From NCBI GenBank assembly GCA_000091205.1, contig AP006499.2: DNA of 64,000 nt; one strand, 5' to 3'. Shown in pieces: positions 1,275 to 24,884 of this stretch. A program made the translations under genes and the position numbers. This DNA is from Cyanidioschyzon merolae (taxonomy: Eukaryota). The notes beneath the pieces were generated by a model. It made no database searches and was not told the origin of the DNA. It saw only the letters and a program-made list of their open reading frames with translations. Each line of letters begins with the position of its first letter. Position 1 is the first letter of the stretch.

Positions 1275-2192
1275 ATGCACTCGAACTTAATCGTTGCGGT
1301 GGCACTCTCGACTGCAGCTGGTCTATCGACTGCGCTTGGAGGCCTTGCGGTCGTTCTGCTACCGGGCGCGAAGAGTGCTTCGGGTGAGCACAGGCTGGGG
1401 CGTTGGCAGGGCACCACTGCGGGGTTTATGGTTGGCCTCAGTTTCTTTGATCTGCTGCCGGAAGTATATCGAGCCCGGAATCAACTGCCACTGCCTTCGT
1501 CGGTGCTATGTTTTGTGCTCGGTGCACTGGTGTTTGCGCTGCTGGAGCGGCTGGTTCCAGAGCCTTTCACGGAAACAGAGGCGAGCTTGGCCGCCCCGGA
1601 CGGCATCGGTATTCGCTCGTATTCATCAGCTGAAACGCCGAGTGCGAGGCGTGGACCGTCCTGTGCGCCAAGTTTGAAAGCAGGCTTCAACGCCGAGCGC
1701 CACCGCCAAGGCACCAGAGCTGTGGCACTTCGCTCGGCGCTGCTGACGACGCTGAGCCTCGCGCTGCACAATCTCCCGGAAGGCATGGCTGTTGCGGCCT
1801 CAGCATTGAGCGGAGGACTCCGGTTGGGGTTGCCTCTGGCTATCGGTATTGCCCTGCATAACGCACCGGAGGGATGTGCGATAGCGGCGCCTGTGTACGC
1901 TGCCACGAACTCGCGCATCCAGGCCGTAACCTGGGCGTTGATCGCAGGCCTCGTAGAGCCACTGGGCGTCTTCTTCTTGATATGGTTCCGGCTTAACCGC
2001 AGGGCTTTGACGGGACTGTTGGCAGGAGTCGCTGGCATCATGACCATGCTGTCCTGTACCGAGCTGCTGCCCCAAGCGCTCCGTATGAATGAGCAGCGGC
2101 CTGGCGTCGTATTCAGTGAATTCGCTTTCGGCATGCTCCTGATGCTTGGTCTGCTTTCCGTGGTCCGATGGTCATTTGGTGTCGAACTGTGA
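1275..2192 (+). CDS. ZIP-family (ZupT-like) divalent metal/zinc transporter, 305 aa
   Basis: ATG at 1275. Multi-pass hydrophobic protein with the two signature ZIP motifs LHNLPEGMAVAAS and LHNAPEGCAIAAP (HNxPEG) inside Gly/Ala-rich TM helices. The ORF is uninterrupted. Confidence 0.85.
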   Translation: MHSNLIVAVALSTAAGLSTALGGLAVVLLPGAKSASGEHRLGRWQGTTAGFMVGLSFFDLLPEVYRARNQLPLPSSVLCFVLGALVFALLERLVPEPFTETEASLAAPDGIGIRSYSSAETPSARRGPSCAPSLKAGFNAERHRQGTRAVALRSALLTTLSLALHNLPEGMAVAASALSGGLRLGLPLAIGIALHNAPEGCAIAAPVYAATNSRIQAVTWALIAGLVEPLGVFFLIWFRLNRRALTGLLAGVAGIMTMLSCTELLPQALRMNEQRPGVVFSEFAFGMLLMLGLLSVVRWSFGVEL

Positions 2193-4542
2193 AGACGGTG
2201 TCTGCGAGAGCACTGTAGAAGCTCACACTGGCACGTTTTGGCCGGAGCTCTCCAGACGATAACAGAGAGCATTGCTCCGAGGGAAGCACCTATGTGCGTC
2301 TCGATATGCGGCGTCCATCCAAGGCCGCAGTCTTCAGATTCTCAAGCGCTCCTGAGTTGCCTTACGAGGAAGCGAAATACTGGCACTTCTATCGTTGGTG
2401 TTTGCGAAGACCAGCGGCGGCACGAAACTTCCAAATGATTGTGACGCGATACAGAAGGCGAAGCTCGGTAATCCCTCGATCTATGAAGACGAAGTGTGCT
2501 GCGTTAGCATGGAGCGCATGGTGTTCCCAGAGTCCGATAAGACAACTTCCTGGATTTTTTTCTGATCTGAATGACACTGCGTCTCAGGGTAGTAGCTGGT
2601 GTCGTGCTTTCGATGTCATCCATTGCGTCTTGTACCTAAAGCGCGCTGTGAAAGCGCTAACACACAATTGATGCTTCTGGCGGTAACGTGCCTGGTGGAA
2701 TTGCTGTGAAGGCTTCCCCTGGAAAACATATCCGCGGGGAAAATCTTCCGAGTGGTGAGATGCAGGACTCCATTTGGCATCACGTAGCTTCTTACTCGAA
2801 AAAGCCGCATCGAGTTTCACGGGACTCGACGCAGCTCAATAAGCGACTCTACATTTGAGGAGCGGACGCAAGACTTCCAGCTGTCTACATTTCCATGGGA
2901 CTTTTCGATCAAACCTTTGTGCGTCGATGCAGCCAATGCACGGGACAGAAGACGTCATTCAGCCTGATGAAAAGGTCAGCGTGTTGCACATACGGGTGCC
3001 AGCATACTTCGATGCGTGGCTGCACCACCTCTTCCACAGAAACGTCTAGATCGCTGGCGCCAACGAGCGTTAGACACAGCTCACAAACCAAAACAATATG
3101 CGGGTCAATCTTGGGCGCTTCACGAAGTGCACCTCATGGGCGCCGTATTTTCTATTTACTGCCCCGAACAAGTGGGGATTGATGGAACGCGTTCCTGAAC
3201 CTGGTGATGCAAGGAAATGGCGAGTTGATGGTAGCCGAAGACGACAACATGGTGGCGAGTTCGAAAGCGATACCCCAACGAGATCGGGAGTCGCCTTGGA
3301 TCGTCGATGCTGACCGTGCATCGCTCGGCCTTGGAGCTGAGAAGCTCTCATTCAAAAGATGGTGAGATCGTGATGCTTCGCTTCCGGGAATCTTGCGTCA
3401 ATGCGTTCTGTGAAACAGAAACCGCCGCCCCAGAGCAAAAGCAGACGCGCTCTTCGAATCCGCGCGTCATCACGCTCCTCGAGCATCCATTCGATCCAGT
3501 TCTCATGTGTCAGATCAAGTCCGACGATATCGCCGTAGACACTTCTGTGCTCCACGGGGTAGTGCTGCTCGGCTTCCTCAGTGAGCTTCAGTTGATCTCT
3601 GCGAGCGAGTACGATGCAGTCAACCAACGTGAGGAGTAGTATCGGTTGTTGCCGTTCAGGGTTTCACGTTTACACGCGGGAAATCGAAAGCAGTCCACGG
3701 GTACGATGCGGCCCGCTGGCATATCCATCGAGATGCACTTTGTGAAACCTAGGTCCGAGTCAAGCGGCAAGACTCATTTGCATCTATGCGACATAAAAGA
3801 ATTGGAAGACCTTGTAGCGGGGCGTGGATCTCGGATTCAAATGCGTTATGGCCTTCGCCATTCCGCCAAATCAGGAGAACGGAGCCAAAGACCTGGACTG
3901 AAACTAGACGATGATGCTGCACAGCTTTTTTTCGTCGACAATGATCGAGACTTGGATATGCTGGACACCAGGACGCCCACCTCGATGCGCTGAACGCCGA
4001 ATCGAGTCCAGGGTGATGCCCAAGAAGCTGCATTCGGAGCGTGCATGAGCATCCCAAATGGATCACGCGGACGGCATCTTTATTTTCTTGGAAGGAATAC
4101 ATGGGAGTGCGCTGGCGTCGCCAACGTTTTCAATTGCACGGAGGAAACAAGCGTACGTTCGCCAACTTGTCCCATGAACTGGAAAAGGGACTAGCAAACA
4201 TGCCGCATCGTCTTGGGTTCGCCGCTGACGCTGGACGTATTGTGTTGCGCACGGGCTGCATACCTGCATCTTCGTTAGAGCATCCATCAAGTCCAGAAAT
4301 CGATTCTGTTGGATTTTCGTGAATGCGTTCAGGACGAGGTACACGCATCACAAACGCAGGTACACGCGGACACACTCAGAGAAGTAGAGCATGAAACAGA
4401 GCTGAATGCACGAGATGGTGTCCGGTACGCTGCCCGAACGTCGGCTGGCGAGGCAATCGAGGCTGTGCAGTTCGCCACGACATGAGTCTAACAGCGACAG
4501 CGCGCACAAGAAGTTCGCATGCACCGACCCTTGAACACCTCG

Positions 4543-7983: not shown

Positions 7984-9474
7984 ATGAGCAGCCATAGTGC
8001 AAAGAGCTTTGATGTGACTGGGTCCAAGTGGGTCCATGTGCGGGGCGTGAGGTCGGGTCGGCGGCTTGAAGCGTCCGAGTGCAGCGTTCCAACTGATTCT
8101 GCGTCGTCACGGGCTCGTAACGTACGAAAGCAAAGACAGCGTGCTGGTTATGTGGATCTCGAGACGTCTCCGTTGACACCAGCAGCTTCAGGTTCCAGAC
8201 GGCAGACGGTTGCTGCTTGTGGCAGTTCTCGGCGGTATCGCCGTTTTATGAACGAATTGTACTTGCGCTTGAGTGCGGTTCATTATGGGAGTGTCGGAGG
8301 CCTCGGCACTGAGGCCTTGGATTCACCGCTGGATACCTGGGAAGTTGGCGTTGAGCGGCCTCCAACGGAAGCGGCGTGGTTGCACGAATTCTGGACAGAT
8401 ATGCGCGAGCGACACGCCGAGTCTCCCCAGATGGAACGGGTACTTCGAGGAATGGGCGACGCATGGCATTTTTGGGAACCGTTTCGTGAATGCACCGAAG
8501 AAGAGGAGAGAATCTTGCTGGACGCCTTGTCTTCGATTCGGAAGAGCGTATCCGCACGCCATCGCTCGGGTGAAGCGCGCACCCCCGAGCCCCCTATCCC
8601 GGGCAGCAGGCAGCATCGCACCGCCAGATCGAATGCGCTCGAGTCGCAGATGAAGGCGTTGCATCTTGGGAATCAACGCGACAATTCGAATGACATCGTT
8701 TGCGAGGTGGAATCTGAAGAAGAAAACTTTGCTGCGGGCATAGCCGGGCACCATCCACATGCGCGGGTTGAAGCAGCAGAGCATGTATTCCCGTTGGACG
8801 AGGATTGCCAAGTTGATCCCGCACCACCCACGTCGCAGCTCGAGATAGCGGACGCAAATGAGGTATCCAGATTGATCTTGGCATTCTTTCGTCTCAGTTA
8901 CGCCACACGAGAGCTTCTGCGCCGCTATTCCAACGATCTCTGGTTGCTCATAGCCCACCATGAATCCATTTTACACGAGCATGGCCTTGTACCGCACCTG
9001 AACCAAAACCACCTTCAGTGGCTCTTGTCTCCGGGTCGCTGTCCACGGTTGTCGAACTCACAGGGTCCAGCAACGGGCCTGCGGCCGACACGGTACGCAG
9101 CTTCGGTCCATGGGCTAGCTGATCCGGGGCCAGACTCGCGAACGTTGACCCTTGAGGCGTCATCACGTCTCCATCGGCGCATCCTGATGGCACTAGCCGC
9201 GTATCATTGTCTCGACTGCGAGCCTGTCCAGCAGTCGAGTTCCAATCTGGCAGATGTGTCCTCTGGTGCTGTGTCCCAGACAGAGACGCACACCAAAAGC
9301 AGACTCCGTCTCGCTTTGAACCAGCATCGTGCTGCCTCTGTGACCGTTCCCCTGGCGCACATTGTCTACCAGCTCAAGTTCTGTGACGCGAGCGTTGACC
9401 GGGCAGTGCGGCGTTGCGTAGAGGCACGAGTGTCTGACGTTTCGGCGCTTCCGCAGACGGCGGTGGGTCAGTAA
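7984..9474 (+). CDS. hypothetical protein, 496 aa, no recognisable domain
   Basis: ATG at 7984, with a 1.49-kb uninterrupted ORF and GC3-rich codon usage like the neighbouring genes. The N-terminal ~90 aa are Arg/Ser-rich, so a later start is possible (e.g. MNELYLRL...). I recognised no motif. Confidence 0.35.
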   Translation: MSSHSAKSFDVTGSKWVHVRGVRSGRRLEASECSVPTDSASSRARNVRKQRQRAGYVDLETSPLTPAASGSRRQTVAACGSSRRYRRFMNELYLRLSAVHYGSVGGLGTEALDSPLDTWEVGVERPPTEAAWLHEFWTDMRERHAESPQMERVLRGMGDAWHFWEPFRECTEEEERILLDALSSIRKSVSARHRSGEARTPEPPIPGSRQHRTARSNALESQMKALHLGNQRDNSNDIVCEVESEEENFAAGIAGHHPHARVEAAEHVFPLDEDCQVDPAPPTSQLEIADANEVSRLILAFFRLSYATRELLRRYSNDLWLLIAHHESILHEHGLVPHLNQNHLQWLLSPGRCPRLSNSQGPATGLRPTRYAASVHGLADPGPDSRTLTLEASSRLHRRILMALAAYHCLDCEPVQQSSSNLADVSSGAVSQTETHTKSRLRLALNQHRAASVTVPLAHIVYQLKFCDASVDRAVRRCVEARVSDVSALPQTAVGQ

Positions 9475-11098
9475 GAAGATCCGCGACGAATTCGCACCAA
9501 TTCAAAGCGTACAATTCAACTTGCACGCATTCGGGCAGCTAGCTAAAGGACAAGTTGCGTGCTTGAGGGCCCGCCTCGTGGATCAGCGGTTTCCATTCGA
9601 GGCGCACCCCGTACTGCTGTTTATCCGTGGAAGCGCTCTTGTCCACCAAATCGAGTGGCTATCAGGTTTCCCTCCTACCCGGATCCTTGCTGTCTTTCAC
9701 TGACCTGCAACGTCCGTGCTTAGGCAAGGAACAGCAGCCCGCGCGAACCCCCAGCAAATCAACACGAGCGCACCTGAACGTGGACACTGCTCTGTACCAG
9801 TCGCTGTCCACGGTGGAAGCACGAGAGGCCGCCCCCAGCTGCTCATCTGGATACCCAGTGCTACCAAACTGCAGTGCAGGTGCTGGGGCACACACAAAAA
9901 GTCTGTCAGCCTCGACACGCCAACAGAGACGCGAAACCGAAGCCGGAAAGTGTGCAAGGTGCCCGTGTGGCACACCTGGCAAGGCGCAAGGACAACGCCG
10001 CCTAAGCGTTTCGAGAACACCACTTCCTAGTTGTTTTTTCAACAAGCGTACCAGCACGGGGTTTGCTTGCACATCAACAACTCGTCCGGGGTTACCCGCC
10101 CCAGCGAGACCTCCAAACCGCTGTCGCCGTTGCCGTGACCCAACCTCCCAAGGCGCACCGGCTGCTCCACTGCGTTGACAACACCGACTCGTCGCTTTGC
10201 AAGCGAGTCGTCGCGCACGCTGCGGGTCAGGTGCAACACGACGTATTGACCCCGGCTTTTTTCTCATTGTTTTCCTGCTTCAACCAAGTGACCGGGTCAC
10301 TGCAAAGCATGACGAATAGGGGCGGTTGGACGGCGAAGGGCTCACAAACAGAAGCACTACGCAGTACGAGAAACGACCACAACAACGACAACGAGCAGCG
10401 TCGGGCGCGCGAAACCTCTCCTTCCAGCGCTGGGACTGGTCAGACCGTGCCGGTTTTTCAGAGCGCACTCGTTGAGCAGCTCATGCGCCAACGCTGGACA
10501 GAGGTGCTCGCACTCTGGCAACGGCAGAGGCAACAGGCAGAGCGACAGGAAGTGGTCGTTTACAGCGACGCAACACCGGCGTGGAAACAGGCCTCCAAGT
10601 CGTTGACGCGGCCACGCTTCCCGGACCTGGTGCAGCAAGGGCTCCAACGTCAGCAGCAAAGCGTCAAGTCACTGGAAGCGGCAGCGTCGCTGACGCCTTG
10701 ACGCGCTGCGGACTGCGTTCGACGACGGTGCTCGTAAAGCGGCTAGTCGACAACGATGACGACACTGGGCAACCGCTGAGGCGACTCGGATACCTAGCGC
10801 CTTTCGCGCTGTAGCACTGACCATGTGTCTGCTTGGAGCGATACCGCTTTGAAGGGAATCGTCTGCTCGTTGAAGTACGCTTCAAACTGGGCTCGGATCG
10901 TGAATGTTCCTTGTCCCGGAGAATCCTCGCTGTCGATGCTAAGCAGCGGTGCCTCGTCTCTGCTGTAGCGGTTGCTGTGTTTCAGCGACGGTCTGCGTCT
11001 CTCGTGCATGGTATGCGATAGCTCTCGCTGTCCATCCGTTGCAACAGTGCCGCGGGTCTACGACTACTGCTGCTACTGCTGCAGATGATATGCTCATC

Positions 11099-12001
11099 TC
11101 ATGCATCCTTCCTGTTCCGTAGATGCCAATCTATGGCGAAAATGCAGCGAGCGAGCTGCTGCACCGCTAGACTGCCGCAAGCGTAGATCGCTCCAATCCA
11201 CAGTGGAATATGACACCAAACTTCAGGATGAGCGTAGTGGTACAGATGGAGCCCATCAATGAGCCAGAGTTCGACGAATGGACCCAGCATCGCGGTGCTT
11301 ATCATGACGCCAAACTCCGCAGCAGTGGAGCTCTCCAGTACCCAGCACTGAACTGGAAGCAAGCTCGATAGTACGAGGGCGATCATAGCCGTACCCAAGT
11401 GTCCGCTGCCGTCTAAATAAGCGCTCAGCCAGTACTGAAAGGTAAATAGCGCCACGCCAGCTGCTGTTCGCACGACGAGTTCTGGGCGAAACGGAGTCTG
11501 GCGGGACTGGAGTCCCAGACGCGCCAGCATCGACCCAGCCACGCCAAAGAGAATCGGTGTCCACCAGGTAAAGCCGACGGCGGTCTGAAAGCCGACGTGA
11601 ACGTTCCAGTTCACTTTGTGGTACTGGAGTGTACCGTAGGTCGTATGAAACGCATCCAACAGCGGTCCATATACGGTGCTCAAGAGCGCTGTCAGAAGCA
11701 CTGCACGATTGGCTGCACTGCCAGTCTCACAGGGTAGAGAAGGCTCAGTGATCAGGGGTGTTCTGAGTCTGAAACTTTTAAAAAACGTTGCATGTCGATG
11801 CTCATCGCTGCAACAGCGCACCAAAGGTACTGTACATCGAACGCTATGTCTCCGAGGCCAGCGCTTGCCCAGGCCTGACCACAGACAAGCCCCGACGCGT
11901 CTCTTTCGGGGGCGAAGCGCTGGCTCTGGTCGACAGACGCAGTCTACTACGAACAGCAGCGTCTCTGGAACTGAGCCTGCAAGCCGGTGCGCGGTGTACA
12001 T
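11099..12001 (-). CDS. INSIG-like (insulin-induced gene family) polytopic ER membrane protein, 300 aa
   Basis: The C-terminal ~200 aa are collinear with INSIG TM helices. [14 protein letters not shown] matches [27 protein letters not shown] matches SAWWVPPCCGTAS, and the helices [31 protein letters not shown] and [17 protein letters not shown] follow in order. The only in-frame ATG upstream of TM1 is at 11999-12001, which gives a 97-aa Arg/Cys-rich N-terminus. The family call needs HMM confirmation. Confidence 0.45.
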
Positions 12002-12845
12002 GAACTCCCGAGCCGCAGACCAGCTTGAACTAGACGGTTTGCCCGGAACACCCCCAGACTTTTATCGAGAGCGACAGAGGTCGCGCGTTGAGCGGTACCA
12101 GTCGCCGGCCGGTGCCCCGCTGCAGTGTTCGGTGCAGGTGCAGACTACGCAAGAGCACCCGCTTTGGACGTCACACGTGTGGAGCGGGGCTCGCGCTCTT
12201 GCCGACACCTTGTGTTGGCAGCCCGAGCTGATCGCGGGTAAGACCGTATGTGAACTCGGTGCAGGAGCTGGCCTGGTCTCGATTGTAGCGTTTCTAGCGG
12301 GTGCGGATCAGGTTGTCGCGACCGACTACCCGGATCCGGAAATACTCAACAGCCTAGAAAGCAATATCCGAGAGCATACGGCGAATAGCTGCAGTTCTGA
12401 AACAGTCAAAAGAGCCAGCCCAAAGGTCGTACCATATCGCTGGGGCGATTCGCCCGATTCTCTTCAACGATGTACTGGCTTGCAGCGTTTCCAAGTCGTA
12501 TTGCTAGCGGACCTGCTGAGCTTTCATCAGGCGCACGATGCACTCTTACGTAGCGTGAAGATGCTCTTAGCGCTGCCGGCCAATGATCCCACCGCCGTCG
12601 CACTGGTGACATTCACTCACCATCGCCCGCACCTTGCGGAGCGCGATCTTGCTTTTTTTCGCCTTGTGAACGCAGACGGAGCACTCATCGCTGAACCGTG
12701 GCTGTCACCGCTGCAGATGGATCCGATGTTCCCGGACGATCCCGGGGATGTCTGCATCAGGGGTCAGGTGCACCGCTGGCGCCTGCGCTGGCGCTCTGCG
12801 GCGAGCGCATCTGCTAATATCCCTGCTCATGCACGGAATGAGTGA
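12000..12845 (+). CDS. Methyltransf_16-type (FAM86/METTL21/Nnt1-like) SAM-dependent protein-lysine methyltransferase, 281 aa
   Basis: ATG at 12000-12002; the longer track ORF from 11676 has no upstream ATG. It carries the family motifs [12 protein letters not shown] and the SAM-binding motif [11 protein letters not shown] followed by [17 protein letters not shown]. The stop codon at 12843-12845 lies inside the first unit of a 68-bp tandem array. Confidence 0.7.
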
Positions 12846-13110
12846 CCTCGAGAAGCGCTATGCTGTATGCATTCGACACGCAAGCTTCTACGGCTACTCG
12901 TGTTGATGAGTGACCTCGAGAAGCGCTATGCTGTATGCATTCGACGCGCAAGCTACTACGGCTACTCGTGTTGATGAGTGACCTCGAGAAGCGCTATGCT
13001 GTATGCATTCGACACGCAAGCTTCTACGGCTACTCGTGTTGATGAGTGACCTCGAGAAGCGCTATGCTGTATGCATTCGACACGCAAGCTTCTACGGCTA
13101 TTCGTGTTGC
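12838..13110. repeat. minisatellite, 68-bp unit x ~4 (atgagtgacctcgagaagcgctatgctgtatgcattcgacacgcaagcttctacggctactcgtgttg)
   Basis: Four head-to-tail copies at >95% identity. Unit 1 begins 5 nt before the methyltransferase stop codon, so unit 1 holds the last two codons and the stop and the remaining units form the 3' flank/UTR. Confidence 0.9.
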
Positions 13111-13756
13111 TGTTGTTGCTGATCCTATTGTTGTGATAACGGTGGCGACGACGGACGCCTTTGGCTACGGATCATCACGCTGCGGGCGATGCTGGCAACG
13201 AGTCCGCGTGTATCCACAGCCCGCATCGTAGAGGCGTGGATACATCTCGCACGCGACTTTCTGAGAATTCCATGTCGAGTTTACAGTGTGCCTGCCCCGA
13301 TTATGTGTCGCTACCGCTGTGCCAATGCCGCTTCGATCGGAGACGTCGCGTGACTGGTCAGTGACCAAAAAACGAGCAAGAATCGACTGCGGCAGTTGCG
13401 TTACCGAGTGACTACGGGATCGGCGGTGAGGAGCGCCGAATCGCCACCGAGGATGACAGCAACAGCTTGGTTCATAGGCAGAGCGCATCGTCCAACACCT
13501 GACTTCACAATGTTGGCGTGTTTCCGGTAGAATACAGCGCGCATCCACGTTGAAGTCGCGAGGCATTGCACGGTCCCTGTGCACCATTTTAGAAAACGGA
13601 CGCGAATTGCGTGTGTGTGCGTGTTCATGGTCCATGAAAATCGCAGCCTGCAACAGTAGTGCACAGAATTTTCAACGACCTTTACGTCCAGTTTGGGGCC
13701 AAAATGGCTTTCGTATTGATGAGGGCGCGCCTTGGTCACTGTTCCGGCATCATTCT

Positions 13757-13771
13757 CTACTGCTGCTGCTG

Positions 13772-13803
<32 letters not shown>

Positions 13804-13804
13804 A
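13757..13804. repeat. (CTG/CAG)n microsatellite, ~16 units with one CTC interruption
   Basis: Direct read of ctgctgctgctgctcctgctgctgctgctgctgctgctgctgcta. It is intergenic, and the overlapping poly-Leu/poly-Ala ORFs are artefacts of the repeat. Confidence 0.9.
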
Positions 13805-13924
13805 GGAATGACGCCCATGGATACATTGCAGATCCGCCGATACCCGCCAGCGCCTCGACAAGTCTTGCTTCATGTACTCAATCCCAATAAAACCGGTTCT
13901 CATCGGATTGCCTGAATTCAGACC

Positions 13925-15571
13925 CTAGTCCACGGTGGATTTCTCGGGATCCCGCGGTAGCGTCTGTTCGGTAGGCACGGACTCGAAACCGGCGCTCGTT
14001 CGATTCCGGCTCGTCGAACTTGCCTGATGTTCATTCCGGTCGCGATGGATATCGTCGGAGGCTTGCTTCTGTTTGTCTGCACGATCTGGGGCCTCGTTCG
14101 GCTGCTGGGGTTTCGATGGCATTGGCGACCGCCGCGCAGGTACCGTGCGTACATATCGCCAGGCTCTGGGGTCGTCTTCGTCGTCCTCCTCTAGATCGAG
14201 GTCATCGCCTGGAAACGTCCCCAAATCACCACCACTGCCAGCGTCGTTATCGTTATCGTCACTGAACCACGGTTTCTCTTGGGCATCGTCGTTGTCGTCG
14301 TCGTCGCCAATGAAGCGCTCCCGTGGTGCGCGCCCTGACCGTCGGACTTTGCTTGGCTTTCGTTTTGCGGGACGACGACGCTGCCCGTGCCTATACGAGC
14401 GCTCGCCGTCGAAATCGTCGCTGTCTTCATCGTCAGTATCGAACCTGTCGTAGTCATCATCGTCGGCATCATCGCGAAACCGGCGACGCGCAAATGCCTC
14501 GACCGCTGCCTCATCCACGGGTATAGGCGTCCTGCGCATAACCGACGTTCGTTGCTGTTGTTGCTGCTGTTGAGCCTGCGGCTCCAGCGCTGCATCGAAG
14601 AGCTCCAGGAAAAATTCCTTGTTCACAAACGGGTAATCACCAATCCAAACGAAATCATCGTCCTCGATGACGCCATCGTCTACCGAACCCGTTTCATCGT
14701 AGAGGTCACGAAGCTCGTCGCTGACGTCGGCAACCTCCAAGTCCGGTGGTATGAACGAGCGCGCCTCGCTCGACGACGTCAGCCGCTGAACGCGAATACA
14801 AGCATCGGAGACGCCGCCAACTCGCCGAAAGTCTGGCACATCGCTCGCAACGAGCATGCAAACATCCAGACCAGGCGAGAGAACCCGGTGTTCGCGGCTT
14901 CGAAACGGTCCAGAAATCGTGATACGACGACCGCTGGGATCGGCTGCAACCACATTAATTCTCTTCTGGACGACCTCCCGAAAACGGGTCCGACGGGAGC
15001 TCGGTATGCGCTCACGGTGCAGGACGGCCTCTGTAACGTACACTTCCCGAACAGTGCCACAGAATAGGCCAATGTAGGGGAAGCGGCGCAGCGCAAGGTT
15101 GCGTCGAGAGGCCAGGAATGCAGGCTCCAAAACCCAGTAGAAAAAGAATACCGCGTTCAGCAAAGAAGTGAGCAGATGGTTAAACAGAACGTTCGACAGC
15201 ACCGACGTGACCAGGAGACCTCCAGCGGAGATCGCCAAACGGTTCAGCAAACGGTCTGGGGTTCCCCAGTAGTACGAGACCTGTTCCAGTGTCGCCCAGG
15301 CCGGCAGCGCGTCCACGGTGGCCTCCTCTGTCAGCGGCCGTATCGCACAAGTCCACGGTCGACGAGTCGCTCGCTCCACTGGACACACACGAACACGGGA
15401 AAGCGCCTTCACCGAACCTAGTCCCTGGAAGCGACTCCAGCTGACTGATGCGCTTCGCCGACATGAAGCACGAAACGCTGGCTCCCGTCTTCCGCAGTAC
15501 AGGAAGGTTGGCTGAAACGCTACACCACGGTTGAGCGCCCGTCCAGAATGAACTTGATTCAGCAAACTCAT
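13925..15571 (-). CDS. hypothetical protein, ~548 aa: N-terminal region with one or two hydrophobic segments, central conserved-looking block (RRFPYIGLFCGTVREVYVTEAVLHRERIP...), and a long Asp/Glu-rich C-terminal tail with a Q7 run
   Basis: The first in-frame ATG is at 15569-15571 (the track start at 15580 is GTG). The 1.65-kb ORF is uninterrupted. The C-terminal ~200 aa are strongly acidic low-complexity (DDDDYDRFDTDDEDSDDFD..., DDDNDDAQEKPWFSDDNDND, LDLEEDDEDD). I recognised no family. Confidence 0.4.
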   Translation of the reverse strand: MSLLNQVHSGRALNRGVAFQPTFLYCGRREPAFRASCRRSASVSWSRFQGLGSVKALSRVRVCPVERATRRPWTCAIRPLTEEATVDALPAWATLEQVSYYWGTPDRLLNRLAISAGGLLVTSVLSNVLFNHLLTSLLNAVFFFYWVLEPAFLASRRNLALRRFPYIGLFCGTVREVYVTEAVLHRERIPSSRRTRFREVVQKRINVVAADPSGRRITISGPFRSREHRVLSPGLDVCMLVASDVPDFRRVGGVSDACIRVQRLTSSSEARSFIPPDLEVADVSDELRDLYDETGSVDDGVIEDDDFVWIGDYPFVNKEFFLELFDAALEPQAQQQQQQQRTSVMRRTPIPVDEAAVEAFARRRFRDDADDDDYDRFDTDDEDSDDFDGERSYRHGQRRRPAKRKPSKVRRSGRAPRERFIGDDDDNDDAQEKPWFSDDNDNDAGSGGDLGTFPGDDLDLEEDDEDDPRAWRYVRTVPARRSPMPSKPQQPNEAPDRADKQKQASDDIHRDRNEHQASSTSRNRTSAGFESVPTEQTLPRDPEKSTVD

Positions 15572-15824
15572 GCTGCCCACGCACCGATTCGTTAGAGAAA
15601 TCAGCTTAAAAAATAAAGACTCGCTCTGTAGACAAGTCGTTTACCGTCAGTACTGGCGTCGGTTCGCCCTCTGGTGCTCGCGTTCCTGCCAAAAGGCAGT
15701 AGCAGTTGTAGCAGCTGTAGAAGTATCAGTAGCAGCTGCAGTACCAGTGCCTCTTTACGACAGCGGGTGGCGGCGCGAGGGGCGCTGCGCGATCGCCAGA
15801 TACGACGCCACGGCGGTAGATAGG

Positions 15825-15981
15825 TGGTAGATAGGTGGTAGGCAGGTGGTAGATAGGTGGTAGGCAGGTAGTAGATAGGTGATAGGCAGGTTGTAGACAG
15901 TTGGTAGACAGTTGGTAGATAGGTGATAGGCAGTTGGTAGACAGTTGGTAGATAGGTGATAGGCAGTTGGTAGGCAGGCAG
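15825..15981. repeat. degenerate minisatellite (GGTAGATAGGT / GGTAGGCAGGT / GGTAGACAGTT)n, ~11-12-bp unit x ~14
   Basis: Direct read. It is intergenic between the acidic-tail gene and the photolyase gene. The track ORFs 15726..16067 and 15755..16219 translate this repeat (LSTNCLSPIYQ... iterations) and are not credible genes. Confidence 0.85.
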
Positions 15982-17496
15982 CGTACCGTGCTCGGAGGCT
16001 CGTTGACGCTGCGGTGCTGTTGCATGATGCTGAAGGACGCTCGGTGTGGTTTTTTGTATGGTTGCACACGAGGAGCCTTGCCTGGGTATTGACCAGCGTC
16101 CAGTTTCTGATTGCGCTCTGGTTATCGATATCCAGGTGTGTGTGTGCGTGTGCGTTTATGATGCTGCACCAGAGCTTCGATCGCCATGACTTTTCCATCG
16201 CATCAGATTTCGTGGTCATGTCGCTGGTTTGGCGATGCTCTACGTATGCGGTACGCGTTCGAGATCGTGTCTATGGCGTCAGAGCGTGGGTGTAGCTCGG
16301 CGAAAGAAGGACGTTGACTTGACTGGATCGTAGCACGGTGCATAGGCTGGCAGGATTCGCCGCCCGACGCTCGTGTCCGGGGTGCGCACGACCTGACCGC
16401 TCTTGCGTCATGGGAAGCGGGGGTATCTCCGATCAGGACAGAACAACGTCGTGCGGACAAGCTACGAGGCGGGCATCGACGAATGATCCGGTGGGAAAGG
16501 TTTCCGTGCGAATGGCGATTCATTCGCCACGGTACGTTTGAATCGCCACTGCGGCTGATGTCGTCGTCAGACTCGCCTATCGCTTTTTTTACGAATAGCG
16601 GTTTCCACGTCTTGGCATACCAAAATACCTGTGTTCGATTTCTCCCGAATATAATCTGATCGAGTACGACGAACACTCGTCCCGGTGGGCGTGTTCACGT
16701 TTCAGCGTGAGACCGATAGCGCAACGCGCGATGCGCTCTCATTTCTCTGAACGCGGCATTTCTCTTCATCAGCGTTCGTATCCAAGGTAGAGAAACTTGA
16801 CATGCCGTGACTTGTCTGGCAGGTTTGCGTAGCGTCCACACTGATGAGACTGGACCTAAGAGACTGTCTCCTGTTTGGATGGCGTTGTGTAAGTTGCACA
16901 ATAGGGACACGGCGTTCAGCAACGTGCCCAGGCGACGTGGCGTTCATCCAACTGCGTATCTTAGCGTGACTGCTTTGTAGAAGAAACGCCATTGTCGATT
17001 GGACACCAAAGACGACATAAAGCCTCTCCATGGCTTGTCTTGAATCTACAGGATATATTCTTTTTTGCCGGATACCTGCAAGAAACATAACCAAAACATG
17101 CACAGGTATACAAGAACGCGCTGCTCTACGTAAAACAACAGAGCGCGCGTAACGCACCCGATTTTTCTTCCGATGAACTGGAAACAGCATATACACCAAT
17201 GTTCCGCATGCAAACATCCAAGTGGCAAGCCCAAGCTGGCCCTGTCACAGCACGCTCGCGAAAACTGCAGTTGCGTCGCCGATGCGGGTATGCCCCCTGC
17301 AACCGGGTATTCAAGGGACACCAGGTGCACAGCAAGCGCCTCGTCACAAGCGTACACAAAGCGACTCCCACACTTGCTTTTATGTGATGATTCATGCACA
17401 TCGAGATCAGTACAAAGCGAAGCTCGCCGATGAAGCACCTGTCTTTGTCAATGCACGTCTGTCTATCGGTGTGTTTCTATGCTTGTCGTGAAACAA

Positions 17497-20400
17497 TCAT
17501 CTGCGCTTGTCGTCGCTCGCTGGGCAGCGCGTGAGGCCGTAGGCGTACGGACCTCGCACCCCGCCGTGCGCTCGACGATCCCACTGGCCAGTGACCTCTA
17601 GTCCAAGCGTATTCCGCAGAAAGTGCTTCATTTTCGCAACAGTTAAAACGTGACCGAGGCAACGGCTTTTCTGTCGTTCATACGAGCGGCTCCTTTCGGA
17701 GGTCGTCGAATCCTCGCAAGATGTTCCTGCAGCAGCTAACTCTGCTTTGAGCGCGCGCAAGCGAACAAAGTCCGTATGTGGTCCGAAAACCGTATTCGGT
17801 GTGAAACGATAGTGCTGCATCAGGAAGCGCGCGAAGCAGTGAAACGGTTGGTTAGGTTGCAGCGCTATCGCTGCCAATATCTCTTCGCGTTCCGCTACAC
17901 CGAGCATGCTCGCTCGCGTAGGATTGCGCTGGCCTCCACGTCGCCGTTTCTGTGGCTGCGCTGGTTCCAGGGTCACGCTCTGCGCACTCGTCGTGATAGG
18001 CGAGAGCTCCCGACCAATGTCCGCAGTCTGGACACGCTCCAGCGGGTCATTCCATGCTCGCAACTGCTCGTTTGCCGTTGCCGATGCTTGTTCCTGGTTG
18101 GCGGCAGCATCCTCTGGACCAGTTACCCAGCGGAGAAACTCATTGAGTTGCTCGGGACGCACTACACTCAGTTGCGAAGACGACCCCGAAGAGCGTCCGC
18201 CAGGCTGCATCGCACCAACTTCAGACGCTCCTGCGTCCGCACGTTCGATCCAGGAGGGCGCGTAGCCTCGTCGTTGTCGTTGTCGGCTTTCTGGCACCAA
18301 CGCTGCTGCTGTATGTACACTGCCAATGCCGAATGCTCGACGACTGTGGTTACCATAGGAAAGCGACTGAAGAGCGTTGTGCTCGACGGTCGGGGCGAGC
18401 TCCTCAATGATGGTCGTTGAGCCCCTTGAAAAGCGATCATGAAGTGCGTATGGCGTTCCATTCGTGAAAGAGAACGTTTCCATCCCGGAATCGTCCGAAT
18501 CCGATGCAGATTGCTCAAGCCACAACTGCGGCTGTTGCAGATCAATTAAAGACCACAGGGATCGGGTTGGTTGTCGCAGTACAAATACACGCCGCATGAG
18601 GTCCATGGAGTCGAGTGCTCGCGCTCGAGCCGTCCGCGAGTCCACCACCGGATGCGCATAGCAAGAGCCCAGCGCGATACCCGCTTGCGCAAGCACTGAA
18701 GCTGGCGCTCGCCACGGACGATGGACGTAACACGTAGGCAGTGCGGCCAATTCGGGTACCCAGCGCTTCACGTACTCACCATGGGGATCTTCTCTGAGCC
18801 CAAACGTGATCGGATTGACGATACACGCAAACGGGAACGCATCGGTGTGGCAGCCTGCCGTCCACTGCCACCCGAGCGTCTGACAGGCTATGTCCCCGTC
18901 GAGAACATGATCGTAAAGAAAGCGGAGACCATGCTGCCACGGAATGAGAAGGTACTTGGTCAGGAAGCCGGCGATCATGAAACGAATGCGATTATGCAGG
19001 TATCCAGTGGTACGCAACTCCCGAATCGCTGCGTCAATGATGGGATACCCGGTTTGGCCGCTTCGCCAAACCTCGAGCATGCTCTGATCGTTCCAGCGCC
19101 AAGGAAAGGCGCGGAATTCGGGCAGTAGCGGCTCTTCGAAGGCCTGTGGATTGTGAAAGAGCAGGTGATACGCGAATTCTCGGAGGCACATGTTTTTCAG
19201 GAACGCCTTCACCGCGCTGATGGTCTGTTGTGCATCTGCTGCATCGGTGTGGGTACGTGTGTTTGCCGCGAGCGCCTCGCCTGCTGTAGCGTGACGCTCA
19301 CGGTTCAGGAGCGCATGCCGTGTGCTCCTTGGAGCCGCTTGATCGGTACCACCACGACCTCCGTCGTCGTTGTCATCTGCTTCATCACCATTATTATTAT
19401 TATTATCGTCGTCGTCGTCATCCTCATGATCGTAGAGAAAGTAGGTCGTGCCACTGGAGCCTCGTGGTCGGTTCACTTGAACCCGAAGCGGAAACATCGG
19501 CGCTCGCTGCGGCTGATAACCGGGAACTGCAGCAGTAGCAGTAGCAATAGCAGTAGCATCCATGGAGTGAGGTGTTGCACTGATTCGGTGTGGCGACTCC
19601 AGGTAACCGTTCTGCTCCCTCGAATGCGCTGGTATTCCATTCCCTAGGGAAAGCGCGCTAGGCGCGTCCGACACGATGTCAGCCATGATTGCTGCATACA
19701 GCTGCCGCGGGCTAATCTCACCGAAACGAACATGCATGGAGAGGCGGCTCGTGCCGTCGAGCGCACAACGAGACTCTCGACGCCCGAATTTGGGATAACG
19801 CTCTCGGAGAAACCTTGACAACGTAATCCACGCTGCTCGCTCACCGACAAGCGGCCACATGCATTCCATCTGGGCACACCATTCCGGACTGAGATCAGAG
19901 ACCAGCTCCAGCTCATGAATCTCGACATGGGAAACGCGTTGCCGTAAACCAGGCAGCGTCTGCAGCCTCAATGGCGCTGCTACAGGTGGGGGCGGTTTCG
20001 GGAAAGCGAGCCACTTTTCCATGAAGGGGTGAAACTCATTGAATGGCTCACCGTTGTCTTGAGCAAGCTCCCACGGCTCCACAAGAAGTTCCGATTTGAA
20101 GCTAACGAGTTCAACATTCCAAACAGCAAGGCGTTGTTCCAACGTTCGGTCCACTTCTGCGGCACCGATATCGTAGCAGCGGTTGAAGTAGACTGCGCTC
20201 GCATTCGTTTCCCGCGCCAGCTCCACAATGCTTTCCACGAGGCTCCCCTGCAGAACCACCAGCCGCGCATCTTCGCCGTAGCGGTGCGCGAACTCCCGGT
20301 CCAGCGCCAGCAGCGACTCTCGCAGCCGCCAGCGCCCTGCTCTGCCAGGTTTACTCATCCACGGCAGTTGCGGGTTCCAAACGTACACAGGAACCACCGG

Positions 20401-20643
20401 CATACCCGTTTCTGCAGCCGCACAGAAGGCAGCATGATCATCTATTCGGAGGTCGTGCCCCCGGTACCATACCAGTATGGGGCGCTGTGTCGCGCCCTGC
20501 GCTGCAGCCACTGCGAGCGCTGGTGTACGTCCCGGTGGCGGATGCGCGTTCACCTCCCGCCCCGCTTCGAGCAACGGGGAGCTGCTCAAAGCAAGCCACG
20601 GACACTCCTCTCCACTAGTTTCTGAAGGAGGATACGCGGGCAT
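17497..20643 (-). CDS. cryptochrome/photolyase-family flavoprotein, ~1048 aa, with a large internal low-complexity insertion and a ~400-aa C-terminal extension
   Basis: The first ATG is on the reverse strand at 20641-20643 (the track start is GTG). The N-terminal alpha/beta photolyase domain reads ILVWYRGHDLRIDDHAAF...PVVPVYVWNP. The FAD-binding domain reads TGYPIIDAAIRELRTTGYLHNRIRFMIAGFLTKYLLIPWQHGLRFLYDHVLDGDIACQTLGWQWTAG, as in class I CPD photolyases and plant-type cryptochromes. A ~130-aa disordered insert lies between the domains and contains HEDDDDDNNNNNGDEADDNDDGG, encoded by (AAT)5(GAC)n. The long C-terminal tail is cryptochrome-like. Confidence 0.85.
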   Translation of the reverse strand: MPAYPPSETSGEECPWLALSSSPLLEAGREVNAHPPPGRTPALAVAAAQGATQRPILVWYRGHDLRIDDHAAFCAAAETGMPVVPVYVWNPQLPWMSKPGRAGRWRLRESLLALDREFAHRYGEDARLVVLQGSLVESIVELARETNASAVYFNRCYDIGAAEVDRTLEQRLAVWNVELVSFKSELLVEPWELAQDNGEPFNEFHPFMEKWLAFPKPPPPVAAPLRLQTLPGLRQRVSHVEIHELELVSDLSPEWCAQMECMWPLVGERAAWITLSRFLRERYPKFGRRESRCALDGTSRLSMHVRFGEISPRQLYAAIMADIVSDAPSALSLGNGIPAHSREQNGYLESPHRISATPHSMDATAIATATAAVPGYQPQRAPMFPLRVQVNRPRGSSGTTYFLYDHEDDDDDDNNNNNGDEADDNDDGGRGGTDQAAPRSTRHALLNRERHATAGEALAANTRTHTDAADAQQTISAVKAFLKNMCLREFAYHLLFHNPQAFEEPLLPEFRAFPWRWNDQSMLEVWRSGQTGYPIIDAAIRELRTTGYLHNRIRFMIAGFLTKYLLIPWQHGLRFLYDHVLDGDIACQTLGWQWTAGCHTDAFPFACIVNPITFGLREDPHGEYVKRWVPELAALPTCYVHRPWRAPASVLAQAGIALGSCYAHPVVDSRTARARALDSMDLMRRVFVLRQPTRSLWSLIDLQQPQLWLEQSASDSDDSGMETFSFTNGTPYALHDRFSRGSTTIIEELAPTVEHNALQSLSYGNHSRRAFGIGSVHTAAALVPESRQRQRRGYAPSWIERADAGASEVGAMQPGGRSSGSSSQLSVVRPEQLNEFLRWVTGPEDAAANQEQASATANEQLRAWNDPLERVQTADIGRELSPITTSAQSVTLEPAQPQKRRRGGQRNPTRASMLGVAEREEILAAIALQPNQPFHCFARFLMQHYRFTPNTVFGPHTDFVRLRALKAELAAAGTSCEDSTTSERSRSYERQKSRCLGHVLTVAKMKHFLRNTLGLEVTGQWDRRAHGGVRGPYAYGLTRCPASDDKRR

Positions 20644-23600
20644 CACACATGCAGCGTCAAGTTCCACAAAGCACCGCTGACGTCCTCGTGTATCGACGGG
20701 TGCTGTTCGCGCGCACCTTGAACCTGTATAAAGCAGGTACCCGCAAGCACTCGGAACAAACCTACCACTTTGTCGTTACGAAGTCTACAAGCGACCAGTA
20801 GCGTACGACAAGTGTACCAGCACCCAAGTGCCTGCTTGATTGTCCCGGAAACCTGATAGCACAGAAGCCTTCCGTTTCGGACACCGGTTTGGAGGGGTCA
20901 GCTGCGACCAGCACTACGAGCACCACCAGATAATCGATCATATATGGACATTGAGGACGTCGAGGTCGCGATGCAGCGCTGCTGCCGCCGCTGCCGCTGC
21001 GCAAGCGATCATCGACTGCCCGTAACACGATGCGTAGGATACCTATGTGCTGGTGCAGTGGAGGCTGCACGTGTCGGTTGCTATGGTCACGTCTGGTGCA
21101 TGTGGGGCAATGAATTTGGGTGTAGGAATCGTGTATGGAGCCTAGGTTCTCCAAAAATCTTGGACAAGTTGCAATGAGGGGTAACGGATCTAGGTGTCGT
21201 TGGAGGGTGCTTGGAGGTCATTTGTCGGGGTGCTTGTGTGTCGCTCCTTGAGCGCTGGCGTTCGATACATCACCGGAATCAAGATGACTCATGACGCTCT
21301 TGAACAGCGGTTCGTAAAATAGCTGATATCGTGATGCAGAGCATAGGTACAGGCCCCAGGCTTTTCCGTTCTTGATGTGGAGCGTGCTCGAATCGCGCAT
21401 GCTTCGAGTTTTCTGTCTTTCTGGTTCATGACGGCGCATGTGTTGCTGGAAGAACGACGAACAAAACTGGACGTCATGTCTCGGCAATTTGTTCACCAGC
21501 TCATATCGATCGTTCACTGAACGTGTCTCGTCGAATCATCGATGCCTTTTCGAGCCACACCTGCTTGGATCCTCGTACATATCCACGGACGACATTCCGC
21601 AGCAGCGTGGCATTTCTGACGCGGGGCGCTTCTGGAGGCCCCCGTCTGCTCGGTAGACATCTGGAATAGGTCAAGGACGCGCGCTTGAGTCATCGAAGCG
21701 ACTGCTTCTGGTGGAGCGCAAGTCACCACCACCATCCACGAAAAAGGCGTAGACGGATCGAGAAATCTCGATCTCGTGTCTAGCCTGGATTCTCCTTGCG
21801 CGGCTTGTTTCATCATGGGAAACACCACGTTCCAAAAAGATTCTTTATCAAATGGAACATCGTGCTTTTGCGTGTGCCGCTTACAGGTTACGCATCGAAG
21901 GCATCGCCCGGAACAAGCCAGGAATTGCCGTGGAAGGCACCAGAGGCGCCAACGAATGAAGACACCAACCAGAGCCCTCTGTAGCCGTCAAAGGCATGTA
22001 CCGGGATGTGAAGCAAGCGTTCACCTGCCATAGGACGACGCTCGGAGGAGCAGAAGGTGCGGTTTATGTATTAGAACATCTGACCAGCGTCAAGTGTTTT
22101 CGCTGCGAAGCGCGCTCCGAGGCTATCTATATCGAAGATGCATATTGCAAGCGACGCGTAGATTGGAACTACTGCTTCTGCATGAAATGCGTCGACAGCA
22201 TCCATACGCGGCGAATTCGGGACTGGAACGTATCCATCAATACCCTTCGACTGATGATAAGGGGGCCGGAGGCACGCGAGAGACAGGCGTCTGGAAAGCC
22301 GATGAATCGAGAGAGACGAAAACGTAGCATTTGCACAAGAATTCCGCAGCGGCTGGTATCGGAGACAGTGGCAGGAGTCCCAAACCTTACAGTGCGCACC
22401 TGCGTTACGAGGCCCATTCCGTCGGAAGCTCAGGCTGGTCTGGGCGCGTGCACCATGATGATGATGACGACGACGCGCTGGTTGCCACAATGATGTTGCT
22501 CTGGACATTTCAGCTACAGAAAAACGTGCAAAACCTGATAACCAGCCACAGATGCATGGACACGAGTCAAGGCTCTCGAATCTTGCTTGCCATATCAATG
22601 TCTGCGAAAAGCTTGTACGAACACCGCATCTCCCGGGGCGAAGGAGTTCGAGCGCTGCACATGTCCTCGACTGGCCGGGAGGCATGCTGCAGGCTCGCGA
22701 CACCCAGACGATAGCTGCTGCTGCTGCTACTGCATGCGTTCTCGGGAACATCTTGTAGGTATATTTCAGCGCGAAACGCATGCGTCGACGCTCACACCAC
22801 CTCCCTGTACAAGAGCAGAGCACTTTGACGAATAAGTTTCACAGCGTACCGAGGCCTTGTCCGGCGAATCGACTCGAAAAGCGCGCTTGTTTGCTCTTGC
22901 CCCGCATCGGATCGCGAGTTATCCAAGGTTCCGATTCTTCATGTTCGAAAGCGCTGCGCCTCTGCATGAGTTACTCGGGAAAATAGATGACTTTATACGG
23001 CAAACAGCGTCAGCATTTGATTTGTCTAGGACGAGGTCTGCAAACGACACCTGCGTGGATGTCACTGCAAGCGCAGCGTTACAAACCTCAACAGCTTCTG
23101 GTACCGGCAAGTGAGCGCCCCAGGGCCAACACAGCTGGTTCACGGCTCTCGTTATCCAAGCATACAGCAGGACGCTTCCGCCCCACACGAGTGATTGCAT
23201 GCAAAGTACAGCACAGTCACGATGAAGGCACACTCGTTGCGCTACTGCTTGCGAGAGCACACGGCAGCAGGGCCAACCGTCACGTAGAACACCCACGCTT
23301 GATCAAGGAAGAGCACGCCGCATCGCTCGTGAAACCGGCATCCGCTACAGAAACACCCCAGAAAGAAAAGTTATTCTATTCACTGAAACGGATCGGATAA
23401 AGGTACGCCATCCGATCAGTGCACAAGCCAGCGTAGCGCAGCCTGGTATGCAGTTGGCCCGCAACGCGTTACGCATCTGCAAGGCGCATACCTGTCCGTC
23501 AAGGAAAAGAACACGCAGCAGCTTGTATAGCACTAGCGCAGAATCACCAGGATCCAGACCGTAACAGGCAGCGTTAAACGTAGCACAGCACCGCGTGATG

Positions 23601-23860
23601 AAAGCAAAGCATCCACCACAGCTTCCGGTTTGCACAGCACAGGTGGTATTGCCGCTTCTGCGAAGACGCCCAGTGCGTCTGTTCGCTGCCGCAGCTTCAG
23701 TGCGTCGCTATCCAGCACAGCGACGCTCATCTGACTCCTGCAAAAGACAACAGCAAGCCGAGGTGACATCGGGAACACCTCCCGCCGGCGCTCGTATTAC
23801 TGTTAATTCGTTATGCTGTCCTGCAAAACACCAACCAGTTGCAAGAGGCACACGCCAGAC

Positions 23861-24685: not shown

Positions 24686-24884
24686 GCTGCCCTAGCTTTC
24701 CTCAAGTAACGCGCTACCCCAAGGCATTCTTGGAGCGCCCCACGAGCACGAGCGCGCGACATGTCCTATCGCCGCTTGACGGTTACGCAGCCAACGCGTT
24801 AGGGCAAGTGTGTCTCAGCTGGTGCACTGTCAGAGGGCGAGGCTCAGACGTGAACCGCCAGAGGGCTTGCTTTATGTATAGTTT

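Follow-up and report, generated by a model that had tools for sequence, protein, structure and literature searches.

In Cyanidioschyzon merolae 10D, two divergently oriented protein-coding genes, CMQ450C and CMQ451C, start from one CATG palindrome. The junction was analyzed in a 64,000-nt stretch of chromosome 17 (1,232,258 bp; contig AP006499.2 of assembly GCA_000091205.1), hereafter the window, whose coordinates are used throughout (Table 1). Both genes are real, each has one possible ATG, and the junction is kept in three deeply diverged lineages and is absent in Cyanidium. Head-to-head pairs normally retain a promoter spacer; here there is none, in a free-living eukaryote with roomy intergenic regions, and the spacer-free pair of essentially intron-less genes was kept while neutral sites turned over completely. 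The CMQ450C/CMQ451C pair is an extreme, conserved variant of the head-to-head overlapping gene pair.

The reference annotation in GenBank already puts both starts in the CATG. Added here are the conservation of the junction in three lineages, its absence in Cyanidium, a single inversion that links the two gene orders, and the exclusion of alternative starts. Full-text literature searches found no paper discussing the CMQ450C/CMQ451C start overlap and nothing relevant on bidirectional promoters or overlapping genes in Cyanidioschyzon. CMQ450C was absent from the papers found, and CMQ451C appeared solely as the modeling template PDB 3BZB (PMC4082365).

Two start codons interlock in a single CATG

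The CATG lies at 11999-12002 (sequence of 11990-12010, cgcggtgtaC ATG aactcc; wider junction string, gcgcggtgtaCATGaactcccgag). Bases 12000-12001 are common to both start codons, the coding sequences (CDSs) overlap by 2 nt, and the spacer between the genes is -2 bp. The window sequence and the open reading frame (ORF) calls thereby bear out a preliminary description of this DNA, which had placed two ATGs in one CATG with a 2-nt overlap and had left no intergenic promoter space. On both strands, the CATG provides the first ATG past an in-frame stop, with no ATG in between. The in-frame stop is 63 nt upstream of the start for CMQ450C and 354 nt upstream for CMQ451C in C. merolae.

The window holds 271 CATG sites, and at the junction site only are at least 150 codons open both ways. 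When the window was simulated 200 times with a second-order Markov model, no run produced a CATG open for 200 or more codons in both directions, and in ~150 kb of related loci the orthologous junction was the sole CATG of this kind. The interlocked starts are genuine and go beyond a chance ORF pattern. With divergent orientation and overlapping coordinates, the two genes form a protein-coding pair that overlaps head to head, and homologues, profiles, and structure establish both partners as constrained, real coding sequences. A classical bidirectional promoter, with an intergenic spacer holding both outward transcription start sites (TSSs), is not present at the junction, where no noncoding DNA lies between the start codons.

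Both partners encode conserved proteins

CMQ451C matches Pfam Methyltransf_16 (PF10294) with an E value of 1.2e-8 and 35.3 bits (cutoff, 21), which upholds the family label given earlier. The nearest named relatives are fungal Efm7/NNT1 proteins (33 to 42% identity; E values of 1e-43 to 1e-25). Judged by sequence, CMQ451C is a putative Efm7/NNT1-type protein methyltransferase, an assignment that consists of one-way matches to named fungal proteins. PDB entry 3BZB, deposited as an uncharacterized protein, is the exact 281-aa CMQ451C product, and PMC4082365 uses the name CMQ451C for the methyltransferase with 3BZB as its structure. A conserved L-x-G-L-P-x-x-P-x-(F/Y)-Y motif is located ~13 residues after Met1. 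An LxxP.DFY-like motif is found 10 to 20 residues past Met1 in both CMQ451C and fungal Efm7, and the N termini are colinear.

When the 300-aa CMQ450C sequence was scanned alone against Pfam, no match was obtained at an E value of ≤0.1, including INSIG (PF07281). A profile search collected 450 relatives, with a conserved domain from ~residue 100. All 10 sampled homologues matched PF07281, and four exceeded the gathering score. With CMQ450C as its first sequence, a profile of 48 sequences matched human INSIG-2 (6M49) with an E value of 4.1e-21 and mycobacterial MvINS (4XU4) with E values of ~3e-5 to 3.8e-5. The AlphaFold2 model from the 48-sequence alignment had a predicted local distance difference test (pLDDT) score of >90 at ~residues 95 to 300 and of 40 to 55 at residues 1 to 94; an earlier model from 5 sequences (pLDDT, 40.6) was unusable. 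When the model was compared with the PDB by Foldseek, the top five matches were all INSIG or MvINS structures (TM-score of 0.80 for MvINS and 0.67 to 0.71 for Scap-bound INSIG-2), and matches beyond this family had E values of >0.1. The INSIG label of the preliminary description therefore stands by virtue of the family profile and the predicted fold, not of a Pfam match of the protein itself, and CMQ450C is predicted to be an INSIG-family membrane protein with six transmembrane (TM) helices. A literature search for INSIG in red algae found no relevant paper.

The N-terminal tail of CMQ450C has an aromatic residue at position 2, is basic and Ser rich, and carries a VRC motif. INSIG-1 has a disordered cytosolic tail. 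For CMQ450C, such a tail and a plastid transit peptide would fit equally well.

The junction is conserved in three lineages

The loci compared came from C. merolae-like contigs (L001 to L006 and L015), Cyanidiococcus yangmingshanensis (L007), a third lineage (L008 to L011), and Cyanidium caldarium (L014). The C. merolae-like sequences are metagenome/Logan contigs that look like genomic DNA. A word-indexed search found only three nonself homologue clusters for CMQ450C, and the methyltransferase was the divergent neighbor on their contigs. The CATG is the first ATG both ways in seven C. merolae-like, one Cyanidiococcus, and four third-lineage contigs, and it is the only such site there. Conservation across species, which had been proposed as a check, was found in C. 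merolae strains, Cyanidiococcus, and the third lineage, all of which carry the same CATG. The shared CATG is absent in Cyanidium caldarium, where the two genes are apart.

Across the three lineages, the methyltransferase shares 63 to 69% identity, and the INSIG-like protein shares 59 to 73% in its core and 23 to 29% in its tail. Where residues are conserved, only ~15% of the codons are the same in the three lineages, and synonymous sites are saturated. Other spacers in the neighborhood vary by hundreds of base pairs between lineages, whereas the CMQ450C/CMQ451C spacer is fixed at -2. A metagenome scan for further lineages returned two C. merolae-like contigs only.

The most distant homologue of the word-indexed search, which is also the most distant one with its contig inspected, is an INSIG-like sequence at L013:534-1616 (33% identity; contig of 50.5% GC). 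Its upstream neighbor is on the same strand, 52 bp away, and the methyltransferase was not found near it on the contig.

No alternative start codon is available

The preliminary description had noted that the INSIG-like ORF has no other Met before TM1 and had named an internal start or a 5' intron as ways out of the overlap. The former observation is correct: CMQ450C has no internal Met before residue 158, which sits at or beyond the end of TM2, and none of the three lineages has an alternative ATG ahead of TM1. Nearly identical environmental C. merolae strains have either Met or Val at residue 158 (window position 11530), and the other lineages have Ala or Leu there. For CMQ451C, the next Met is at residue ~199. 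A functional enzyme from an internal CMQ451C start is ruled out, because this Met lies past the SAM-binding G-x-G motif. An internal start is thereby excluded for both genes. The remaining strain differences in the CMQ450C tail are mostly nonsynonymous (S10P, V18A, and K33N).

Starting at the CATG, the INSIG tail (95 to 110 codons) reads through without a stop in each of the three lineages, although it carries several indels. For the individual lineages, the chance of an open tail was 0.078, 0.048, and 0.034, with a product of ~1e-4. The tail shares the invariants M1, G9, G37, and R47 and an (S/L/R)(V/L)RC motif, which is SVRC in two lineages and is found also in Cyanidium. The Cyanidium INSIG tail starts at the homologous Met (M-I-D...G) and has SVRC, and the gene there is not beside the methyltransferase. 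Upstream of the INSIG ATG, each of the three lineages has an in-frame stop at a distance of 60 to 63 nt; upstream of the methyltransferase ATG, the two lineages other than C. merolae have one at 15 nt.

As reported previously, the C. merolae genome has 39 known introns (bioRxiv 10.64898/2026.05.17.725761), and 0.5% of the genes contain introns (PMC1955436). With so few introns genome-wide, a tail open in three lineages, and shared N termini, neither a 5' intron nor an exon farther upstream is likely. The rarity of introns, the conservation of the tail, the in-frame stops, and the lack of another Met together lead to the conclusion that, with high probability, both CATG ATGs are real starts.

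An ATG-free open frame of 117 codons upstream of the CMQ451C ATG (11646-11999, plus strand) was considered and attributed to chance, given the stop at -15 in the two other lineages. This frame lies over the antisense of the INSIG tail and is found in C. merolae only.

One inversion separates the two gene orders

Gene order was compared among L014:4135-12915, L008/L010:1-10585, and window positions 11099-26450 (Table 1). One inversion of the segment [methyltransferase, 538-aa gene, photolyase] separates the Cyanidium order from that of Cyanidioschyzon and Cyanidiococcus. In Cyanidium, both genes have ordinary spacers: 498 bp separates the INSIG-like gene from the divergent photolyase gene, and 273 bp separates the methyltransferase gene from the divergent apyrase gene. 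The C. merolae apyrase is ~4.2 kb beyond the photolyase start, versus ~500 bp in the third lineage. The interlock probably arose in the common ancestor of Cyanidioschyzon and Cyanidiococcus, where an inversion would have joined the two 5' ends and the spacer would have been lost completely. Any indel inside the CATG destroys one start codon, and the arrangement is therefore frozen and self-preserving.

A conserved acidic protein of ~540 aa is always encoded between the methyltransferase and photolyase (window 13925-15580, minus strand; L014:6986-8602; L008:5620-7194). The C-terminal half of this protein is D/E rich, and the protein has no Pfam domain. Between the methyltransferase and the 548-aa gene of C. 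merolae, a GC-rich trinucleotide repeat (poly-Ala or poly-Leu, depending on the strand) occupies window positions ~13700-13830. An ATG-rich (GAATGAAT/GAATGAAC)n microsatellite is located at L014:12020-12090, 130 to 190 nt upstream of the Cyanidium INSIG-like start. Because of this microsatellite, the Cyanidium INSIG-like leader, if free of upstream AUGs (uAUGs), would be shorter than ~130 nt.

Leaders and promoters would lie inside the partner gene

With a single usable ATG for each gene and introns nearly absent, the 5' end of each mRNA has to lie within the CDS of the partner, either at the AUG of that mRNA or upstream of it. It follows that the two mRNAs are complementary over 2 nt plus both leaders and that the TSSs point at each other. 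The antisense overlap of the two 5' regions, also claimed in the preliminary description, is thus supported for at least 2 nt as a logical consequence and not as an observation.

Upstream of the INSIG-like gene, the distance to the nearest ATG is 376 nt in C. merolae, 157 nt in Cyanidiococcus, and 175 nt in the third lineage. For the methyltransferase, the distances are 154 nt (out of frame), 13 nt, and 235 nt, respectively. The probability of an ATG-free stretch of at least 150 nt was 0.105 under the null. On the side that encodes the methyltransferase, conservation of the protein means that the lineages do not count as independent cases. The ATG-free zone upstream of the INSIG-like gene is suggestive, and the pattern is contradicted by the Cyanidiococcus methyltransferase. 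One C. merolae gene has its TSS ~165 nt upstream of the ATG (PMC12989068).

The best explanation, which we consider fairly probable, is that of two interlocked, genuine genes with crossed, embedded promoters and an ancestral inversion. Two separate TATA-less core promoters would each be located within the first tens to few hundred base pairs of the partner CDS: the methyltransferase promoter in the weakly constrained codons of the INSIG tail and the INSIG promoter in the 5' codons of the methyltransferase gene. The leaders would be short to moderate in length, mutually complementary, and antisense to the first codons of the partner, so that the transcripts would overlap beyond the 2 nt of the start codons. 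Facing promoters across such a short interval would probably either compete by interfering with each other's transcription or interact by forming an RNA duplex at the 5' ends, and cooperation via a 5' RNA duplex has been reported for human INO80E/HIRIP3 (PMC11890862).

Several results weigh against crossed, embedded promoters. No TATA-like element was found within ±250 bp of the junction, and the 300-nt segments preceding the methyltransferase ATG have no 6- to 8-mer in common among the three lineages. Around the junction, CpG content and GC (0.60 to 0.64) are unremarkable, without a CpG peak. The first 50 methyltransferase codons show no extra synonymous conservation (1/22 versus ~17%). The out-of-frame ATG at -13 of the Cyanidiococcus methyltransferase would fit poorly with a conventional leader, barring leaky scanning. 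As for the origin, the inversion is a difference between two orders without polarity, since no outgroup is among the compared lineages. Rfam had no match in the window.

Some of these results would favor bidirectional, nearly leaderless initiation, which we regard as unlikely. Here, the CATG would act as a symmetric initiator (CA at -1/+1), RNA polymerase II (Pol II) would start within about a dozen nucleotides of each AUG, and the overlap would be a few nucleotides, with promoter elements downstream of the TSSs or a shared factor centered on the junction. The pyrimidine-purine CA is inherent in CATG on both strands, neither side yielded an upstream promoter motif or synonymous constraint, and a very short leader would avoid the Cyanidiococcus ATG at -13. 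The AAAC ATG G context of the methyltransferase in two lineages also resembles the core of the translation initiator of short 5' untranslated regions (TISU), whose consensus around the AUG is SAASATGGCGGC. However, the full consensus is not matched by the methyltransferase starts (gtacATGaac in C. merolae, i.e., GTAC ATG A; aaacATGgac in L007; and aaacATGgaa in L010), and the INSIG-like start contexts (gttcATGtac and tccATGttt) are outside it as well, being poor in each of the three lineages (T at both -3 and +4). The CATG is not embedded in a larger palindrome or a conserved motif, and leaderless Pol II mRNAs are not known to us from red algae. The ~165-nt leader of the one C. merolae gene for which a TSS was found in the literature consulted points in the same direction. 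In the strictest version, to which we give a slender chance, a single symmetric Pol II site would start on the A of each ATG and yield two leaderless or nearly leaderless mRNAs, with the promoter information downstream. If true, it would be, to our knowledge, the first case in any alga of a nuclear promoter that is bidirectional, leaderless, and conserved, and it would mean that red algae recognize a cap-proximal AUG.

It is improbable that the interlock is an artefact of the gene models, in which the methyltransferase alone would start at the CATG, the INSIG-like protein would be made from a non-AUG codon near TM1 or through a spliced upstream exon, and the shared start would be a coincidence arising from a C conserved just before the methyltransferase ATG (-1). 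In favor of an artefact, gene annotation in C. merolae is ORF based, the first 95 INSIG-like residues are poorly conserved and predicted to be disordered, and the Kozak context of the INSIG-like ATG is weak. In addition, a prokaryotic gene caller favored shorter INSIG-like models of 240 or 194 aa. However, the Met of the 194-aa model (third lineage) would delete most of TM1, and no other ATG precedes TM1. The open tail, with its joint chance of ~1e-4, the residues and motif found also in Cyanidium despite the separation of the genes there, the in-frame stop 60 to 63 nt upstream, and the scarcity of introns all argue for the annotated start.

Finally, a neutral frozen accident without regulatory consequence, with pervasive or distant initiation and leaders from beyond the partner gene, would suit an interlock that is mechanically hard to break, the lack of a known functional link between an INSIG-like protein and an eEF1A methyltransferase, their being unlinked in Cyanidium, and the failure to find a conserved element. 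This reading is improbable, however: its leaders would be longer than 850 nt and would include numerous upstream ATGs (at -154 and -376 in C. merolae for the first ones), purifying selection on both proteins means that each must be adequately expressed, and its "frozen" part is already within crossed, embedded promoters at a self-preserving junction.

Comparison with known systems

Human head-to-head overlapping pairs are the closest in form: the genes are on opposite strands, their 5' ends overlap, and their 5' transcripts are complementary. Expression of such pairs is coupled by sense/antisense effects or shared promoter regions. The human overlaps typically involve 5' untranslated regions or alternative first exons of particular isoforms. 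In CMQ450C/CMQ451C, by contrast, the coding sequences themselves interlock, and every functional mRNA must overlap the CDS of the partner. Among the human cases, 5'-extended, overlapping INO80E isoforms have been described (PMC11890862).

Classical bidirectional promoters of mammals, yeast, and compact genomes share with the C. merolae pair the divergence and the close 5' ends. They consist of an intergenic, nucleosome-free spacer between divergent genes less than 1 kb apart, from which the TSSs fire outward. Here, the spacer is -2 bp, and the TSSs would cross and face each other. In the extremely compacted genomes of microsporidia and nucleomorphs, gene overlaps and overlapping transcription occur, spacers have been lost, and transcripts run into neighboring genes. 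Those genomes are compacted throughout, whereas the C. merolae case is a local, lineage-conserved exception.

Bacteria and phages have divergent overlaps of a few nucleotides and face-to-face promoters with transcriptional interference, as for pR/pL of coliphage 186. However, they couple transcription to translation and use Shine-Dalgarno or leaderless starts, whereas the C. merolae locus is nuclear and transcribed by Pol II, with cap-dependent scanning. Prokaryotic gene overlaps have been surveyed (PMC2174442 and PMC2478687).

Short-leader systems, namely, mammalian TISU mRNAs and the mRNAs of Giardia (leaders of 0 to 14 nt), would permit a minimal transcript overlap, and the methyltransferase context in two lineages is TISU-like. 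Nevertheless, the consensus is unmatched in C. merolae and for the INSIG-like gene, and we found no evidence of short leaders in red algae.

On both sides of this junction, coding sequence must also carry functional Pol II promoters and leaders. The locus is thus a natural test of a TATA-less promoter within codons, of interference or cooperation between facing promoters, and of the minimal red-algal leader. Gene targeting by homologous recombination is possible in C. merolae, and PacBio Iso-Seq (PMC8831791), stranded RNA-seq (bioRxiv 10.64898/2026.05.17.725761), and ribosome-profiling data (PMC12989068) exist; the long-read study does not deal with 5' ends. In practice, 5'-end knockouts, tags, and promoter swaps of CMQ450C or CMQ451C will hit the partner gene.

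Neighboring spacers and other features of the window

The C. merolae genome of 16.5 Mb contains 4775 genes, with ~3.5 kb per gene (PMC1955436). Spacers flanking the CMQ450C/CMQ451C region are 1.1 to 1.9 kb, including 1.9 kb between the genes for ribosomal protein P0 and CMQ447C. The next-tightest divergent pair in the window is RPL17 and a pyridoxamine-5'-phosphate-oxidase-like gene. Since the other spacers in the region are normal, the overlap is not a by-product of general genome compaction.

Table 1. Features of the CMQ450C/CMQ451C junction, orthologous loci, and neighboring genes (window coordinates unless a locus is named)
Feature	Location	Strand	Description
CMQ450C (BAM82277)	11099-12001	-	300-codon ORF; 300 aa; INSIG-like
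CMQ450C core, residues 96-300	11099-11716	-	Six-helix INSIG-family membrane domain, predicted from profile and model
CMQ450C tail, residues 1-95	11717-12001	-	Disordered (predicted), fast evolving, translated; sole possible site of the CMQ451C promoter and leader
Shared CATG	11999-12002	Both	Plus-strand ATG, 12000-12002 (CMQ451C); minus-strand ATG, 12001-11999 (CMQ450C)
CMQ451C (BAM82278/XP_005538314)	12000-12845	+	281-codon ORF; 281 aa; putative Efm7/NNT1-type Methyltransf_16 protein methyltransferase
ATG-free stretch upstream of CMQ451C	11849-11999	+	Inferred upper bound (~150 nt) of a uAUG-free leader
ATG-free stretch upstream of CMQ450C	12002-12374	-	Inside the CMQ451C CDS; inferred upper bound of leader plus core promoter
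C. yangmingshanensis junction (L007)	CATG, 2118-2121	Both	Methyltransferase, 1278-2120 (-); INSIG-like, 2119-3030 (+); junction, gaggtcCATGtttctc
Third-lineage junction (L010; GCA_041825655.1)	CATG, 9652-9655 (L008 to L011)	Both	Methyltransferase, 8794-9654 (-); INSIG-like, 9653-10585 (+); junction, cagttcCATGtttgac
Gene order, Cyanidium	L014		Apyrase (-), 273 bp, methyltransferase (+), 538-aa gene (-), photolyase (-), 498 bp, INSIG-like (+)
Gene order, third lineage	L008/L010		Apyrase (-), ~500 bp, photolyase (+), 524-aa gene (+), methyltransferase (-), CATG, INSIG-like (+)
Gene order, C. merolae	Window		Photolyase, 548-aa gene, methyltransferase, INSIG-like; reversed orientation in the window
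Ribosomal protein P0	5106-6077	-	
CMQ447C	7984-9474	+	
RPL17 (L17e, cytosolic)	Met at 47367	-	Divergent from the pyridoxamine-5'-phosphate-oxidase-like gene, ~370 bp apart
Pyridoxamine-5'-phosphate-oxidase-like	47738	+	Divergent from RPL17

One of the C. merolae-like contigs differs from the window to the left of CMQ447C: at L002:369-4133, acetyltransferase and TLD-domain genes are present in place of the Zip transporter and ribosomal P0 genes. Either the strain is rearranged here or the assembly is chimeric. For RPL17, the listed ORF starts farther upstream at a TTG, and the true Met is the one at 47367.

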